Assembly (NCBI RefSeq): GCF_003991155.1
Contig: NZ_CP031293.1
Direction: 5' to 3' (one strand)
DNA: 64,000 nucleotides
Source: Escherichia coli
Lineage (GTDB): Bacteria > Pseudomonadota > Gammaproteobacteria > Enterobacterales > Enterobacteriaceae
Part shown: positions 52,794 through 61,469 of the stretch, piece by piece
Position numbering within the stretch: the first letter of the stretch is position 1
How the letters are laid out: every line of letters begins with the position of its first letter
Program-made: the position numbers and the translations under genes
The notes under the pieces: model-generated
The model's input: the letters and a program-made list of their open reading frames with translations, nothing else
What the model was told of the DNA's origin: nothing
The model's database searches: none

Positions 52794-52832
52794 ATTTAAT
52801 CAACATGCCACTTGCTCCTGGGAGGAACAATT

Positions 52833-54872
52833 ATGTCGTTTATTAAGCAAGATCCCCACCGTCTGGTCTGGCAACAAGACGATCGTTATCTCTGGATTGA
52901 AGCCTGGGGCGAAAACAGCTTACGCGTGCGAAGCGGCCGCCATTTACCGGTAATGCGCAATGAAAACTGGGCGTTAACTCAGGATCCTGGCGATGCTGTC
53001 GCTCATATCACCTGGGATGAAAAACAGGCAACGCTGAGAAATGGTAAAATCACTGCCATCGTAAATCTTCAGGGCCAGCTCTCTTTCTGGCGTAATGATG
53101 ATAAATGCCTGCTGCAAGAGTTCTGGCGTCAACGTGGCGAAATTGGTGAAGATGAGTCAGCACACGGCCAATATGTGAGCGCTCTTAATCTACAGGCCCG
53201 TGAATTCAAGCCTATTCCTGGCGGGAAATTTACGATTAAGGCACGATTTGAAGCCAACGATGGCGAGAAACTCTTTGGCATGGGTCAGTATCAGCAACCA
53301 AACCTGGATTTAAAAGGTTGCATGCTGGAGCTGGCACAACGTAACTCGCAGGCTTCTGTTCCCTTCCTGCTATCAAATCAGGGTTATGGTTTTCTGTGGA
53401 ATAACCCAGCAATTGGCCGCGTCACCTTCGCGCAAAACGGTACGGAATGGGTAGCAGAAGTCAGTGAACAACTGGACTACTGGATCACTGCGGGCGATAC
53501 TCCGGCTGAGATCAGTGAAGCCTATGCACGAGTAACCGGTACGCCACCGATGATGCCTGATTACGCAATGGGGTTCTGGCAATGCAAGCTTCGCTATCGT
53601 AATCAACAAGAATTGTTAGAAGTCGCACGCGGCTACAAGCAACGCAATCTTCCGATCTCGGTGATTGTCATCGATTTCTTCCATTGGCCGAATCAGGGTG
53701 ACTGGATGTTCGATCTGCGTGACTGGCCCGATCCCGATGCGATGATCGCCGAATTAAAAGAAATGGGTATCGAACTGATGGTTTCATTCTGGCCTACCGT
53801 AGATAACCGTACCGAGAGTTATCGGGAGATGAAAGAAAACGGCTGGCTAGTCCACACCGAGCGTGGTTTGCCTATCAATATGGATTTCCTTGGCAACACC
53901 ACGTTCTTTGATGCGACACATCCTGGCGCACGGGAATATGTCTGGAACAAAGCCAAACGCAATTATTACGATAAAGGCGTGAAACTGTTCTGGCTGGATG
54001 AAGCCGAGCCAGAGTTCGGTGTTTACGATTATGACAACTATCGTTACTACGCAGGGCCAGTGCTGGAAGTCGGTAATATCTATCCGCGTATGTACGCCAA
54101 AACGTTCTTCGATGGCATGCAGGCAGCCGGAGAAAAGCAGGTGATCAATTTGCTACGCTGCGCCTGGGCCGGTAGTCAGAAATATGGTGCCCTGGTGTGG
54201 TCAGGCGATATCCACTCCTCCTTCCGTTCTCTGCGCAATCAGTTTGCTGCGGGGCTGAACATGGGAATTGCCGGGATCCCGTGGTGGACGACGGATATTG
54301 GCGGTTTCCACGGTGGCAACATACATGATCCAAAATTTCATGAACTGCTTATTCGCTGGTTCCAGTGGGGGGTATTCAGCCCAGTAATGCGTTTACATGG
54401 CAACCGCGACCCGCAAGTTTTGCCTGAACAACCCTATCGTGATGGCATCGCACAATGTCCGACTGGCGCGCCGAATGAAGTCTGGAGCTATGGTGAAGAA
54501 ACCGGTGAAATTCTCACTTCCTGCCTGCAGTTGCGTGAGAAGCTGAAACCTTATATCAGTAAAATTATGGCTGAGACGCACGAGAAGAACAGCCCGGTAA
54601 TGCGCACGATGTTCTTTGAGTTTCCAGACCAGGCAGAAAGCTGGAATATTTATGATCAGTACTGCTTTGGCCCGGACCTTCTCGTTGCCCCTGTAATGCA
54701 CGAAGGTACACGTTCACGTGATGTCTGGTTGCCTGCCGGAGAGACATGGATCGATTTTTATACCCATGAACACTACGCGGGTGGGCAAAAGCTTCATCAT
54801 TGCGCGCCGCTGCACCAGATACCGGTATTCATTCGTGAGAAAGGGAAATATCGCCAGTTATTACCCGTTTAA
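52833..54872 (+). CDS. Glycoside hydrolase family 31 (alpha-glucosidase / alpha-xylosidase-like), accessory
   Basis: ORF-track frame 52812-54872; start placed at the ATG after SD GGGAGGA (MSFIKQDPHRL); GH31-like FWLDEAEPE and WSGDI segments; 19 bp after the transporter. Confidence 0.8.
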   Translation: MSFIKQDPHRLVWQQDDRYLWIEAWGENSLRVRSGRHLPVMRNENWALTQDPGDAVAHITWDEKQATLRNGKITAIVNLQGQLSFWRNDDKCLLQEFWRQRGEIGEDESAHGQYVSALNLQAREFKPIPGGKFTIKARFEANDGEKLFGMGQYQQPNLDLKGCMLELAQRNSQASVPFLLSNQGYGFLWNNPAIGRVTFAQNGTEWVAEVSEQLDYWITAGDTPAEISEAYARVTGTPPMMPDYAMGFWQCKLRYRNQQELLEVARGYKQRNLPISVIVIDFFHWPNQGDWMFDLRDWPDPDAMIAELKEMGIELMVSFWPTVDNRTESYREMKENGWLVHTERGLPINMDFLGNTTFFDATHPGAREYVWNKAKRNYYDKGVKLFWLDEAEPEFGVYDYDNYRYYAGPVLEVGNIYPRMYAKTFFDGMQAAGEKQVINLLRCAWAGSQKYGALVWSGDIHSSFRSLRNQFAAGLNMGIAGIPWWTTDIGGFHGGNIHDPKFHELLIRWFQWGVFSPVMRLHGNRDPQVLPEQPYRDGIAQCPTGAPNEVWSYGEETGEILTSCLQLREKLKPYISKIMAETHEKNSPVMRTMFFEFPDQAESWNIYDQYCFGPDLLVAPVMHEGTRSRDVWLPAGETWIDFYTHEHYAGGQKLHHCAPLHQIPVFIREKGKYRQLLPV

Positions 54873-57061: not shown

Positions 57062-57312
57062 TTTTTATTTCTCTTTCAGGTGAATAGATCGTTTTTACTA
57101 TTTTACCCCGCACGAATCATCGTTAAAATCAGATTATAGTGTAGGAATAATTCGTTTTTTACGAACCATTGAAGGATTTGTGCCATCAGCGATGAGATGA
57201 GTTTTTGACGGCTGTAAGCGCTCACGAGTGACCCTAAGCCCTGATAATCATAGCTTAAGGTCAGGATTTCTGAGGGATTAATTAGGAAAAGTAATAATAA
57301 AATCGCACTGTG

Positions 57313-58557
57313 CTATAGCTGTTTATTCCAGAGATGCTTGAAAATATCTAATGTTGAGACAACATTGGCAGGCGACATTCGGTTTAATGAGGGTAGAAAG
57401 GGATGAGCCTCCAGGAAGTTGATAAAACGAGTCGCGCTTGCTAACGTCGAATACCGCATTTCATTTGCTTTCTTGTTTCCTGTAAGGTTACAAACAGCCA
57501 TTGAATAATCACGGGCGGAAAATGTACGCCAAACATTATTTCTCACGCCACCACTCAAAAACAACCGCGGCGGCGTATCATAATGAGTCGTTTTCTCGCC
57601 GCGTTCTTTCACAAATGAAATATGGCACCGGCCTTGATGAATATGCTGTAAATTAGCCATTAGACAACCGCCTAATATAAAGCACTCGTGATCAAGGTAG
57701 TGTTGAATATTTATAGAATATGCTTCAGTCAGTGCTCTAACCAGTTCAAAATGGCGATACGCCGGAAGAACCGGTTTCACCAGCATCCCCGGATCGTTTT
57801 GATGTAATATCGCCCGACCATAATCAATATCAAATAAGGTATCACGCCGCATAGTAAGTAACTCCTTGCGTTGTACGTGATGCGCCAGTGTCCCTGGAGA
57901 CAAACGCTCTTCATAACTTGATGCATATTGATAATGCGACTCTACCGCTGATGAAGAATAATTTGTTGAAATAGCGACGACTCTACCGCTTTGTTCTTCT
58001 GCGGTAACAAGACTATAAAGATAGTTGTTACTACCGTTAAACTTTACGCGAAAAGCGCGGGTAGATAGAGAAATATCAGAAGCAGAAGAGTATTGGCAAC
58101 TTTCTTTATAGTTTACTTCCCGGGCTAGTTTCATCAACTCACGGTTAAGCCCTGTGCTATTAAGAAGTAATAATTTACGGATATCTGCAAGTGAAGCACC
58201 TTGATCAATCATCAATGCTAAATGTGTTCTTCGCGGCGTTGTATTTACATGATCCAGAGTGATAAAAGTTCTGGAACAATGATGACAATACATTCTCCTC
58301 TGCCCCTGAGCTGAATAGCCATACTTTTTCAGAGATGTGCTTCCGCAAGCTGGACATTGTGAAACCACCCCTCTCCATGAATGATTAACACGATTACGAT
58401 AAATATTAAGAGATCGTTCAGATATCACAGGAAACAAGTAACCGCATTCCCGACATAAAATATTTTTGCCTTGTGCAATATAATCCTGGCTATTCAACAA
58501 CCCCAGGTTTTTGCATCCTGGTGTTTTGCAACAATCAACATTTACGTTGGTAAACAT
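57313..58557 (-). CDS. Hypothetical Cys-rich protein with two N-terminal zinc-ribbon-like CxxC pairs (InsA-like finger), accessory
   Basis: ORF-track frame 57313-58593 (426 aa); start placed at the internal ATG with SD AGGGAG (MFTNVNVDCCKTPGC...), giving 414 aa; CRECG, CPACGSTSLKKYGYSAQGQRRMYCHHCSRTF; no CxxxCxxC radical-SAM motif. Confidence 0.6.
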   Translation of the reverse strand: MFTNVNVDCCKTPGCKNLGLLNSQDYIAQGKNILCRECGYLFPVISERSLNIYRNRVNHSWRGVVSQCPACGSTSLKKYGYSAQGQRRMYCHHCSRTFITLDHVNTTPRRTHLALMIDQGASLADIRKLLLLNSTGLNRELMKLAREVNYKESCQYSSASDISLSTRAFRVKFNGSNNYLYSLVTAEEQSGRVVAISTNYSSSAVESHYQYASSYEERLSPGTLAHHVQRKELLTMRRDTLFDIDYGRAILHQNDPGMLVKPVLPAYRHFELVRALTEAYSINIQHYLDHECFILGGCLMANLQHIHQGRCHISFVKERGEKTTHYDTPPRLFLSGGVRNNVWRTFSARDYSMAVCNLTGNKKANEMRYSTLASATRFINFLEAHPFLPSLNRMSPANVVSTLDIFKHLWNKQL

Positions 58558-58686
58558 ATTCACTCCCTGCGAATACCCGGATATTATCGTCATATGTCAA
58601 AGAAAAGAACCTGATTCAATGTGTAACATTGAATCAGGCGGGCATAGCCCTGAAAGGCATACATTACATTTATTATGGTTATCAGA

Positions 58687-60180
58687 TTAGCCCCAGGTTA
58701 CCGCTTCCGGTTTATCACCTCTGGCTTTCATTAATGAATCATTATCAATATCGGCTTTATACTTTAAGAACTTACCATACATTTGTTTTTCAATGTCTGG
58801 ATTTTTACCTATCTGATTAATGGTCTCAAAACGATCGGTTTTGAGGTTGTATAGGTACTTTGGCTTATTGTTACGATCGATGATCATTTTCCAGTCACCA
58901 TCACGTATCGCCCATTCGTCGGTTGGATCATCCTGGAATGGCATGTCAATTCCGAAGATTAATGGCTTTTCACGTTTTAGCGCTTTGTTCTCAAGGACAG
59001 GAACCAACGATTCGCCATCAAAAGTGCGGTCTGTCGGTAATTTGAAGTTCATCATTTTCGCCAGCGTAGGCATCCAGTCCAGCCCATAAACAGGCGTATC
59101 TGAAACCATTCCCTTTGGAAGATGCTTTCCGTATTTAATAATCGCCGGAACACGGATGCCACCTTCCCAGAGATTATCCTTGCGACCACGTAATCCATCA
59201 GTTTCCCCTGCCAAATTCAGTTCATAAACTTTACGTGCTTCACGGGTTACTGGGCCGTTATCACTGGTAAAAATAACGATGGTGTTATCTTCTTCACCCA
59301 TCGCTTTGATTTTATCCAGTACTTTTCCAACCTGAGCATCCAGATAACTGATGTTGGCATAATATTCTCCTGGACCACGCCAGGGTTTATCCGCCCAGTC
59401 GCCATAAAATAAATCAGGATGCTGCTTCTGATATTCGCTCATATATTGTGAGTACATGTCGAGGTATTTTTTGGGCGAAGCCAGGGGACTGTGCACTTCG
59501 GTAAAAGCGACATAAAGGAAGAAAGGCTTACTGTCCTTTTTGTTATCCAACCAGTTGACGACTTCCGAACTGACATACTCACCACTCATTTTATCGGAAC
59601 GTGGTGTGGGTTGCCCGTTACGCAACCAGCCCGTTGGATAGACCATGCCAAAACGGGGACGCTCCTTCGCATTATCCAGAGTAGCGTCGGTAACAAAACC
59701 CGCCGTATTAACCAGTGAGTAATCAAAGCCCATATCTTTTGCCTGCGGCTGATCGGTGCGATCGCCGCCTGCATTCAGATGCAGCTTACCCATCATGGCC
59801 GTGTCGTACCCTTGCGCTTTGAGTAGATTAGCAATCGTGAGTTCATTACGCCCTAATGCCACATCTTTTCCCGTTGGGATCCATGAGCGTATGCCGGTAC
59901 GAAATGGCATCCGCCCTGTTAATAGTCCCGCCCGTGAAGGAGAACTTAAGGGGGCAGGTGCATAATAGTCGGTAAATTTGACGCCTTCCTGGGCAAGCCT
60001 GTCTATATTGGGCGTTTTAACGATCTGATGTCCATATGTTGCCAAATCACCATAGCCTAAATCATCCGCCATAATGATGACTAAATTGGGTTGTTTAGTT
60101 TCGGCGGCTACGGCTGGATTAAAAGCATTCCCTGTGCAAACTGCAAGGCCGATCAAACTGGCCATTAATGTTTTCTGCAT
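58687..60180 (-). CDS. Ser-type sulfatase (periplasmic), accessory
   Basis: ORF-track frame 58687-60216; start placed at MQKTLMASLIGLAVC (signal peptide), giving 497 aa; sulfatase signature SSPSRAGLLTGR with Ser at the formylglycine position; IIMADDLGYGD N-terminal motif. Confidence 0.85.
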   Translation of the reverse strand: MQKTLMASLIGLAVCTGNAFNPAVAAETKQPNLVIIMADDLGYGDLATYGHQIVKTPNIDRLAQEGVKFTDYYAPAPLSSPSRAGLLTGRMPFRTGIRSWIPTGKDVALGRNELTIANLLKAQGYDTAMMGKLHLNAGGDRTDQPQAKDMGFDYSLVNTAGFVTDATLDNAKERPRFGMVYPTGWLRNGQPTPRSDKMSGEYVSSEVVNWLDNKKDSKPFFLYVAFTEVHSPLASPKKYLDMYSQYMSEYQKQHPDLFYGDWADKPWRGPGEYYANISYLDAQVGKVLDKIKAMGEEDNTIVIFTSDNGPVTREARKVYELNLAGETDGLRGRKDNLWEGGIRVPAIIKYGKHLPKGMVSDTPVYGLDWMPTLAKMMNFKLPTDRTFDGESLVPVLENKALKREKPLIFGIDMPFQDDPTDEWAIRDGDWKMIIDRNNKPKYLYNLKTDRFETINQIGKNPDIEKQMYGKFLKYKADIDNDSLMKARGDKPEAVTWG

Positions 60181-60199
60181 AATTATTCCCTGATGAAAA

Positions 60200-60961
60200 T
60201 TAGAAATCATAACCAAGCATATAAATCATTTGATCGCCAAAACCATCGTAGCCCAACTTATTATCGAAATAACGCCACGTCACACTGGCTTTCCAGCGAG
60301 GATAGAACTTCCAGGCCACTGTTAAACCGCCATTTAGCCCATTCCGACCAAATTGTTGTTCCGCATAGGCATCATTTCTGTCCAGTTCTATTTCATTCCA
60401 GTTAGATAAAACAAATTTTTCGTCAAATAACGTAAAAGGTAATACTGCTGTCCAGCCAACAACATAACCATTCCAGCCATTTGTTTGTCCATATTTGGCT
60501 GAGACGTAGTCTCCAGATTGATTATGCAATCCAATATACGGTTTAAAAAACCCCCATGAACCATTCCAGCCGAGGTAGCCCAAACCATAAAACATATCAA
60601 GATCGTCACCCCATGAGTTATCCCATTGACCATAGATCTTGCCAAAGAAAGTCATATTGGAGTCAAAGAGTCTGACATGTGTCATAGCAGAAACGGTATG
60701 ATTACGCCCCGCTACGGCATGGTTAAGCACATTGCTTTCATAAAATGAGTAAAACTCGGCTTCTTTAAAATTCACACCAAAGTCTGCAGTCACTTTCCAT
60801 ACTTCACCACGATGAGTGTTAACGAAGCCACTATTCCAGTCAGCATAACCTGCATTTATTGAGCCAAAGGAACCTTTATATTCTAATGAAGAATATGCAG
60901 GAAGGTGATAGAAAATCGTTGTCAGGGCACACGCAATAAGAAGCCGTCTTTTGGCAGACAT
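60200..60961 (-). CDS. Tsx-like outer-membrane beta-barrel channel, accessory
   Basis: 253-aa ORF with signal peptide, W/Y/G/N-rich alternating segments, C-terminal aromatic (…LGYDF) typical of OM beta-barrels; resembles the Tsx C-terminus (…VGYNF). Confidence 0.65.
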   Translation of the reverse strand: MSAKRRLLIACALTTIFYHLPAYSSLEYKGSFGSINAGYADWNSGFVNTHRGEVWKVTADFGVNFKEAEFYSFYESNVLNHAVAGRNHTVSAMTHVRLFDSNMTFFGKIYGQWDNSWGDDLDMFYGLGYLGWNGSWGFFKPYIGLHNQSGDYVSAKYGQTNGWNGYVVGWTAVLPFTLFDEKFVLSNWNEIELDRNDAYAEQQFGRNGLNGGLTVAWKFYPRWKASVTWRYFDNKLGYDGFGDQMIYMLGYDF

Positions 60962-61469
60962 ATAATATGCTCTCCATTCATTGTTTTTATGGTTCCATAG
61001 AAATCAATACATCAGATAATTCATTTTGATTAAGAACGACTCAGAAAGTATATTTAAAGGTGAATGGCAAAGCGTGATGGAGATCGCAGATTACTTTTAC
61101 CCCCGGGTGTGGAGGTATCGTGTTTCAAAAAATGTGTCGATTTTAAATATCACTCATTGATTTATAAACATTTTTCCTCACAAAAAGAAAATTCAATTCT
61201 GTACAAGAATATTTTGTATCTTCTATTACTTTCTCCAGTAATAACTCACCATTCAGGCATAACTTAAACCTCTTGTTCATAATCTCAACTTTTGTAAATG
61301 AAAACGCACATAAGAGTTAAAATAAACAATGTACTAAAGATTGATTACGCAAAAATGCGAGGCGTCTTCAGGATTAGAATCGATAAAACAGAATGGGTTA
61401 AAGAGAGCGATATAATAGCGGCGGGTGCTTGAGGCTGTCTGTCTCAGGCATTAGCTGAACGGCAGATAG

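Follow-up and report, generated by a model that had tools for sequence, protein, structure and literature searches.

Gene organization of the dnaJ-nhaA region

The DNA analysed here (the window) is a stretch of 64,000 nucleotides of an Escherichia coli chromosome, in which the genes follow one another in the order dnaK, dnaJ, mokC/hokC, Tsx/OmpK-like porin, sulfatase, the gene under study, nhaA and nhaR. The porin gene, the sulfatase gene and the gene under study constitute a three-gene block (57302..61343, no strand assigned), the limits of which are the breakpoints of presence and absence among E. coli genomes. The first gene of the block (60200..60961, minus strand) encodes an outer-membrane channel of the Tsx/OmpK family, Tsx representing a family of nucleoside channels. 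The periplasmic sulfatase of 497 amino acids (58687..60180, minus strand) is encoded by the best-conserved gene of the block, with identities of 70-89%. The residue at its formylglycine position (amino acid 79, codon 59944-59946) is a serine and not a cysteine.

The gene under study (57313..58557, minus strand) encodes a protein of 414 amino acids, registered in RefSeq as WP_001361352.1. The open reading frame taken from the first ATG (58593) covers positions 57313-58593 of the minus strand and corresponds to 426 amino acids, whereas RefSeq uses the second ATG, at 58557. This second ATG is almost certainly the true start, because of the RefSeq usage, of the N-terminal "MF" found in 29 of 29 close homologues and of the ribosome-binding site and start context CGCAGGGAGTGAATATGTTT, which are kept between genera (the upstream ATG is not). 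The ribosome-binding site itself is the motif GGGAG at 58563..58567 (minus strand). Residues are numbered below according to the 414-amino-acid form. The earlier note had reported an open reading frame at 57313-58593 with the motifs CCKTPGC, CRECG and CPACGSTSLKKYGYSAQGQRRMYCHHCSRTF; the frame and the three motifs are all present.

RefSeq names WP_001361352.1 [quoted passage not shown], and the names given to its relatives in databases vary from "cytoplasmic protein" to "IS1 family transposase" and even "lactate dehydrogenase". Our literature search found nothing on the protein, including in PMC4182557, where the block is merely labelled as the "putative cerebroside sulfatase" region. The family is uncharacterised.

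Directly after the stop codon of the sulfatase gene lies a 14-bp GC-rich hairpin followed by a run of T (58599..58639, minus strand), which is kept in every genus. The sequence of its stems varies between genera while the pairing is kept, and it looks like an intrinsic terminator or an attenuator. Since the hairpin is conserved, the porin and sulfatase genes on one hand, and the gene under study (together with a radical-SAM gene where there is one) on the other hand, probably belong to separate or attenuated transcription units. The hairpin was also considered as a scar left by deletion of the radical-SAM gene; as it occurs in all genera and is ancestral, this explanation was rejected.

Upstream of the porin gene, phylogenetic footprinting reveals two elements that are conserved in all genera. 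Block 1 is the sequence ACACATTTTTTGAAACAC (consensus ACATTTTnTGAnAC; 61120..61137, minus strand), centred at about -88.5. Block 2 is the sequence TCTGCGATCTCCATCACG (61073..61090, minus strand), a degenerate copy of the palindrome TGTGAT-N6-ATCACA. Its centre lies at about -41.5 if the putative -10 element is TATACT (61047-61052, minus strand). The perfect form of the palindrome occurs once in each of seven loci, from Kosakonia, three Phytobacter species, UBA3516 and the L008/L009 lineage. Both blocks are kept where the porin gene is inverted (Salmonella) or where the cluster has moved (Atlantibacter). Block 2 is probably a CRP-type site of catabolite control, which is the simplest reading because canonical CRP-type sites also stand in the promoter regions beside distant members of the protein family. 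For the same reason, we did not retain the palindrome as the operator of the protein itself. The most promising candidate operator is block 1. The resemblance of the promoter blocks to the ends of IS1 is at chance level.

N-terminal zinc modules and homology with InsA

The N-terminal part of the protein contains two zinc modules of four cysteines each. The first one comprises amino acids 10-38 (C10, C15, C35 and C38; 58444..58530, minus strand). It is modelled as a small three-stranded ribbon and has no profile match of its own. The second one, a zinc ribbon at amino acids 68-99 (C68, C71, C91 and C94; 58261-58356, minus strand), lies within a larger module homologous to InsA (amino acids 64-145; 58123..58368, minus strand), which is supported by profile matches and by the structural model. 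In an alignment of 43 family sequences, with identities down to 16%, the eight cysteines are invariant or nearly so. In the predicted structure the second ribbon is followed by a three-helix region resembling a helix-turn-helix (HTH), of which the putative recognition helix (amino acids 134-145) shows moderate conservation in the close clade.

The earlier note had recognized an InsA-like zinc ribbon from the spacing of the cysteines and had suggested profile searches. These searches place the N-terminus with the IS1 InsA-type zinc domain, at a level well above chance. The NCBIfam model NF050000 (IS1/IS1595 N-terminal zinc domain) matches the protein with 37.1 bits for a cutoff of 28 (E-value 3.5e-9). 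It is matched by 33 of the 43 family members, the IS1 transposase model is matched too, and the Pfam family Zn_ribbon_InsA is matched by 15 of the 43. With hhalign, comparison to InsAB' of IS1A from E. coli K-12 gives a probability of 96.4% and an E-value of 1.1e-9, residues 64-145 of the protein being aligned with residues 4-88 of InsA. As this alignment spans InsA 4-88, the homology extends beyond the spacing of the cysteines to the whole of InsA, ribbon and helix-turn-helix included. InsA is the DNA-binding repressor of IS1. The protein thus has a recognised DNA-binding domain as judged from these sequence comparisons, and no search placed it among characterised enzymes that have nothing to do with DNA binding by zinc ribbons.

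A C-terminal RNase H-like domain without the D-D-E triad

A HMMER search of 1.8 billion representative sequences recovered full-length relatives of the protein at 21-43% identity. Clustered at 50% identity, the family comprises at least 115 clusters. Some weaker matches of the deep search, made of several stretches (P0140, P0148, P0157 and others), were rejected as full-length relatives, as they consist of tandem InsA-like ribbons and are uninformative on the C-terminal domain. Beyond the N-terminus, no sequence-profile match was obtained in Pfam, NCBIfam, PDB sequences, PADLOC or PHROGs. A first AlphaFold model, built from the alignment of 29 sequences of the close family, had a pLDDT of 53.9 and was uninterpretable between residues 201 and 364. 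It was superseded by the model built from the 43-sequence alignment, which includes the distant relatives and has a pLDDT of 91.1 and a pTM of 0.91. The latter predicts a C-terminal RNase H-like domain of the transposase/integrase type (amino acids ~158-414; 57316..58086, minus strand), the core fold of which resembles the solved structures of IS256/Mutator and other DDE transposases. The earlier note had seen no obvious DDE or radical-SAM signature in this part of the protein. This is correct at the level of the sequence, and the predicted structure nevertheless displays a transposase-type fold there.

The residues N199, Y211, R238, P262, H269, F270, H286, H290, E291, W343 and N411 of the C-terminal domain are conserved across the family. 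No column of the 43-sequence alignment contains an invariant or conserved aspartate. In the column of strand beta-1 (T166) where DDE enzymes have their first aspartate, the residue is threonine or serine (33 and 8 sequences, respectively). The column after the strand 258-260 is a proline in 42 of 43 sequences, and E291 is the sole universally acidic column (glutamate in 39 sequences, aspartate in 4). The lost D-D-E positions were mapped by the order of the strands in the secondary structure and by column statistics, not by structural superposition; whatever the exact mapping, at most one acidic position is conserved in the alignment. The D-D-E triad being lost from the core, canonical transposition chemistry is no longer possible. 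Within the protein, conservation is highest in this former catalytic domain. It holds a His/His/Glu cluster (H286, H290 and E291, plus H269), which could equally mark a non-canonical active site. A correspondence proposed by eye between the IS1 motif MTDGWPLY and the family motif VKPVLPAY, by which the second aspartate would have become P262 and E291 would be the glutamate of IS1, was abandoned, since hhalign gives a probability of 0.4% and uses a different register. The C-terminal domain is absent from the domain databases searched here, with neither a Pfam family nor a curated NCBIfam model for it, and it is described in none of the papers found.

Distribution and domestication

The position between dnaJ and nhaA is common to Escherichia, Salmonella, Citrobacter, Klebsiella, Phytobacter, Kluyvera and Kosakonia. 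Within Escherichia, the gene is found at this site in at least three species. It is single-copy in each of 16 species, and its dN/dS ratio within Escherichia (0.096-0.122) indicates purifying selection. Of 5426 complete E. coli genomes, 1271 carry the block 57302-61343, which is thus absent from about 77%. Genomes devoid of the block have in its place about 113 bp of unrelated sequence; the breakpoints are clean and show no IS scar. Two old alleles of the block exist in E. coli, with nucleotide identities of about 88% and 97-100%. The simplest history suggested by these sequences is that the block was ancestral and was then repeatedly lost in most E. coli lineages.

The search for inverted repeats around the block, which the earlier note had suggested, yielded no terminal pair but only weak pairs inside the coding sequences of nhaA or hokC. 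Carriage of the gene by plasmids or phages was rejected: close matches of this kind are database entries of chromosomes or bacterial contigs that had been placed in a collection where they do not belong, and the other apparent plasmid or phage matches are distant paralogues in chromosomal-type contexts. The gene was already fixed in the chromosome, in a single copy and under selection, before the divergence of the enterobacterial genera, and has remained so. Its single copy, purifying selection, lack of terminal repeats and identical dnaJ-nhaA site in seven genera strongly support a domesticated transposase, not a remnant marking the acquisition of an island. Of the two possibilities raised in the earlier note, the mobile-element remnant is thus not supported, in view of the shared site, the absence of an IS scar and the purifying selection. 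The other one was a regulator of the sulfatase/porin operon that arose by domestication of a transposase. Here the derivation and the domestication are strongly supported (InsA ribbon and HTH, RNase H-like fold without DDE, single copy, synteny, dN/dS of ~0.1), and the part concerning regulation of the operon is plausible from the gene neighbourhood across the family.

Genomic context of close and distant relatives

At dnaJ-nhaA in the seven genera, the block is composed of the Tsx-like porin gene, the sulfatase gene, usually a radical-SAM maturase gene, and then the gene under study, which always comes directly after the sulfatase gene or the radical-SAM/SPASM gene. The latter is a separate neighbouring gene in other genera. 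In the eight examined loci without it (four from Escherichia and one each from K. spallanzanii, K. oxytoca, P. massiliensis and Kluyvera intermedia), the gene under study is kept in all cases. In this close clade it ends a cluster of co-directional genes and is not divergently transcribed. Atlantibacter has kept the order porin, sulfatase, radical-SAM and InsA-like protein at another chromosomal site, with a protein identity of 33%, and a radical-SAM/SPASM gene also adjoins a relative of 29% identity. The four-gene order of Atlantibacter and the radical-SAM adjacency at 29% identity both argue for a functional linkage.

The distant relatives (21-29% identity) adjoin genes of nucleoside or nucleotide scavenging and are often transcribed divergently from them. 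One distant relative is divergent from a deo-type operon and one from the genes of NupC and a nucleoside phosphorylase (PNP). Genes of UshA-like 5'-nucleotidases are divergent from distant relatives in Proteus, E. coli KE47 and Salmonella. The relatives from Vibrio and Salinivibrio are located directly downstream of a PNP/DeoD gene. Several distant relatives occur without any sulfatase.

Proposed role and alternative explanations

A catabolic gene and a DNA-binding protein arranged as a divergent pair are the classic signature of a dedicated regulator. The divergent catabolic gene pairs and the intact InsA-type DNA-binding head make regulation the best reading, and we propose, with a probability of about one half, that this former transposase now regulates transcription of the scavenging genes next to it. 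According to this proposal, the ribbon and HTH would bind DNA sequence-specifically, and the regulated genes would be those of the Tsx-like porin and the sulfatase, together with that of the radical-SAM maturase in genomes that have it. The operator candidate would be block 1, the neighbouring palindrome being more likely a CRP-type site. The former catalytic domain would serve as a module of oligomerisation and/or small-molecule sensing, with the conserved residues Y211, R238, H269, H286, H290, E291 and W343. Several points count against regulation: the clearest conserved palindrome (block 2) looks like a CRP site, the promoter blocks resemble IS1 ends no more than by chance, the gene of the close clade ends a co-directional cluster and is not divergently transcribed, and the best-conserved domain carries the His/His/Glu cluster, which could be a non-canonical active site. 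More tentatively, and at clearly less than even odds, the protein may be the founding member of an unrecognised gammaproteobacterial family of transcription factors derived from a DDE transposase. Its IS1-type ribbon and HTH would recognise the operator, and its former catalytic pocket (H269, H286, H290 and E291) would sense a nucleoside-related or sulfated metabolite. The different clades would control deo, nupC, PNP or ushA-like genes and, in the Enterobacteriaceae, a porin-sulfatase module.

The conservation of the C-terminal domain, which exceeds that of the rest of the protein, and the retention of H269, H286, H290 and E291 would also fit a protein that is still an enzyme acting on nucleic acids, cutting or rearranging DNA or RNA by means of a non-canonical His/Glu site in its RNase H-like domain. 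Such an enzyme might process DNA at specific sites under the guidance of the ribbon and HTH, or might be a nuclease feeding nucleotide salvage. We consider this main alternative unlikely: threonine or serine occupies the position of the first aspartate in strand beta-1, cytoplasmic polymers are not the substrates of the neighbouring scavenging enzymes (these are periplasmic or act on nucleosides), the surroundings of the locus show no DNA segment that is inverted or excisable, and we know of no RNase H-fold nuclease that works with a single acidic residue. Much less probable still is an accessory or maturation factor of the sulfatase, taking part in formylglycine formation or in export, either with the radical-SAM maturase or in its place. 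It would account for the position of the gene, which in the close clade always neighbours the sulfatase gene or a radical-SAM gene, for its retention in eight of the examined loci without a radical-SAM gene and for the richness in cysteines. These cysteines, however, build two structural Cys4 zinc modules and no CxxxCxxC or SPASM motif, the architecture is that of a DNA-binding transposase, distant members occur without a sulfatase, and the protein has no signal peptide whereas the sulfatase is periplasmic.

The explanation to which we give the least weight is that of a mobile-element gene, either the active transposase of an unrecognised IS or the decaying remnant of a horizontal acquisition. 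In its favour, relatives are called "IS1 family transposase" in several databases, and the block, whose presence varies among E. coli genomes, is AT-rich compared to its flanks. This explanation is largely refuted by the single copy at an orthologous position in seven genera, the absence of terminal inverted repeats and of an IS scar at the breakpoints, the dN/dS of ~0.1, the lack of a conserved D-D-E triad and a score of 30.6 bits with the IS1 transposase model, the cutoff of which is 100. As to the apparent plasmid and phage matches, they come from chromosomal DNA that was filed wrongly or from distant paralogues whose surroundings are of chromosomal type.

The transcription regulator is our preferred reading. 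The architecture and the domestication of the protein are well supported, while its function is what we infer. The capture of transposases as host regulators is well documented in eukaryotes, with few clear bacterial cases. The present protein is an old, conserved and single-copy domestication of the DDE type in genera that have been studied very thoroughly and to which many pathogenic E. coli, Salmonella and Klebsiella belong. Recognition of the family would correct the names of misnamed relatives. It would also provide accessory nucleotide-scavenging genes and an uncharacterised porin-sulfatase locus, which may matter in the gut, with a candidate regulator.

Comparison with known families and systems

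Residues 64-145 of the protein are homologous to the whole of InsA (Cys4 ribbon and helix-turn-helix), and its domain order, a DNA-binding head followed by an RNase H-fold core, is the same as in InsAB' of IS1. Unlike IS1, it has neither D-D-E triad, frameshift, terminal repeats nor extra copies. Unlike InsAB' (232 amino acids), it has 414 amino acids, with an additional N-terminal zinc module and about 120 additional C-terminal residues. The IS1 transposase model NF033558, which gives the score of 30.6 bits mentioned above, is aligned to the protein only over positions 1-83 of its 199. Comparison of the C-terminal domain to InsB with hhalign gives a probability of 0.4%, that is, no detectable similarity, and the Pfam family DDE_Tnp_IS1 has no match in the protein.

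The predicted RNase H-like core resembles solved members of the IS256/Mutator group, for example ISCth4 (PDB 6xg8), and by sequence the N-terminal module groups with the zinc-binding heads of the IS1 InsA type and of IS256 variants. In contrast to the IS256/Mutator transposases, with which it shares 6-9% identity, the protein shows no profile-level match over the catalytic domain (neither with Pfam Transposase_mut nor with the NCBIfam models of IS256), does not conserve the triad and is not mobile. The model NF048019 reaches 18.8 bits for a cutoff of 150, in distant members only and over the N-terminus. By full-length model score, triad, terminal repeats and mobility, the protein falls outside the IS families.

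PADLOC gave no meaningful match, and the sole PHROG match is a 90-amino-acid InsA-like transposase ribbon. No radical-SAM CxxxCxxC motif and no SPASM motif or domain was found in the protein with Pfam, with NCBIfam or in the sequence itself, its cysteines belonging to the two Cys4 ribbons.

The promoters of nucleoside scavenging (tsx, deo, nupC and cdd) are under control of the CytR/DeoR type together with CRP. The blocks 1 and 2 contain no recognisable CytR/DeoR operator consensus, and the fold of the protein is unrelated to the LacI and DeoR families. On the other hand, the genes found around the protein family (Tsx-family channel, deo genes, NupC, PNP and 5'-nucleotidase) are those of the CytR/DeoR systems, and the CRP-type sites and the two conserved elements that precede the porin gene, separated by about 47 bp, resemble CytR/DeoR-CRP promoters.

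Domesticated transposases acting as host DNA-binding factors are well known in eukaryotes, and in bacteria they are represented by the TldR repressors derived from TnpB. Unlike TldR, the protein derives from a DDE-type transposase with an InsA-like head and not from the RNA-guided TnpB, and it has no guide RNA; set beside TldR-type cases, its function is one that we infer from context alone. With TldR and the eukaryotic cases it has in common that DNA recognition is kept while catalysis is lost, that the gene is fixed in the host in one copy and is under purifying selection, and that it is linked to particular host operons.

Sulfatase formylglycine position and absence of the maturase gene

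In the E. coli sulfatase, the formylglycine position (residue 79, codon 59944-59946) is occupied by a serine. The sequence APAPL-S-SPSR was found in all three readable Escherichia sulfatases (E. coli, the homologous locus L011 and E. albertii), and all the non-Escherichia sulfatases have a cysteine (APAPL-C-SPSR). The comparison covered loci L005, L002, L008, L012, L024, L027-L030 and L032. The rest of the Escherichia sulfatase is strongly conserved, with 88-89% identity to the Klebsiella and Salmonella proteins.

The gene coding for the radical-SAM/SPASM maturase, located between the sulfatase gene and the gene of the zinc-ribbon protein in other genera, is absent from the blocks of K. spallanzanii, P. 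massiliensis, Kluyvera intermedia and K. oxytoca, and also from that of Escherichia, which combines the serine-type sulfatase with the absence of the maturase. The cysteine is kept in the four other species devoid of the maturase. Blocks without the gene (L027, L028, L029 and L030) were compared with blocks that contain it (L005, L002, L008 and L032). Since no recognisable remnant of the gene was detected in the 170-330-bp junctions of the maturase-less blocks, the comparison suggests that the maturase gene was lost cleanly and several times independently.

A strong hairpin followed by a T-run is localized directly 3' of the sulfatase stop codon (58599-58639, minus strand). This element is common to all genera, and its stems vary in sequence from one genus to another with preservation of the pairing (equivalent junctions in L002, L005, L008, L010-L012, L027-L030 and L032). 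The hairpin is probably an ancestral terminator or attenuator inside the gene cluster.

Organization of the block

In Salmonella and some Citrobacter (L002-L004 and L023-L025), the porin gene points in the opposite direction to the sulfatase gene, and the block is larger and includes two additional arylsulfotransferase genes and one 5'-nucleotidase-type gene. Within E. coli, the block (57302-61343) is represented by two old alleles, one about 88% and the other 97-100% identical to the window at the nucleotide level (E. coli matches H18-H22 versus H17). It is occasionally interrupted by insertion sequences (ISVsa5 or IS3 in the matches H1-H3), and the empty site of K-12 is occupied by IS421/IS186. 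Elsewhere in the window, an ORF of 686 residues lies downstream of nhaR (52812-54872, plus strand); the corresponding gene of strain 2016C-3878 adjoins an ISApl1 insertion and bears the annotation "TIM-barrel domain-containing protein", marked as truncated.

Two elements separated by about 47 bp are phylogenetically conserved upstream of the porin gene, at 61120-61137 (distal) and 61073-61090 (proximal), both on the minus strand. The proximal element is a CRP-like palindrome centred near -41.5, whose TGTGA and TCACA cores are 8 bp apart (an unusual spacer) and which is degenerate in Escherichia.

A second family member

Relatives of the zinc-ribbon protein (57313-58557, minus strand) are misnamed "IS1 family transposase", and the Salinivibrio member (L043, 5968-7434) is wrongly named "lactate dehydrogenase". 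Several PLSDB "plasmids" of 0.8-4.9 Mb are chromosomal DNA, as is an 80-kb record containing katG, metF and metL, and several "phage" records are bacterial contigs.

Some E. coli and Salmonella possess a second family member between metF and metL, displaying 26% identity to the zinc-ribbon protein in E. coli KE47 (WP_001309893.1; L040, 8156-9286) and 22% in Salmonella (L039, 6986-8110). The genes of this paralogue and of a UshA-like 5'-nucleotidase form a divergent pair, and their intergenic region of about 130 bp contains both a perfect CRP core and, just 5' of the paralogue start, the conserved inverted repeat CAACGA-N10-TCGTTG.
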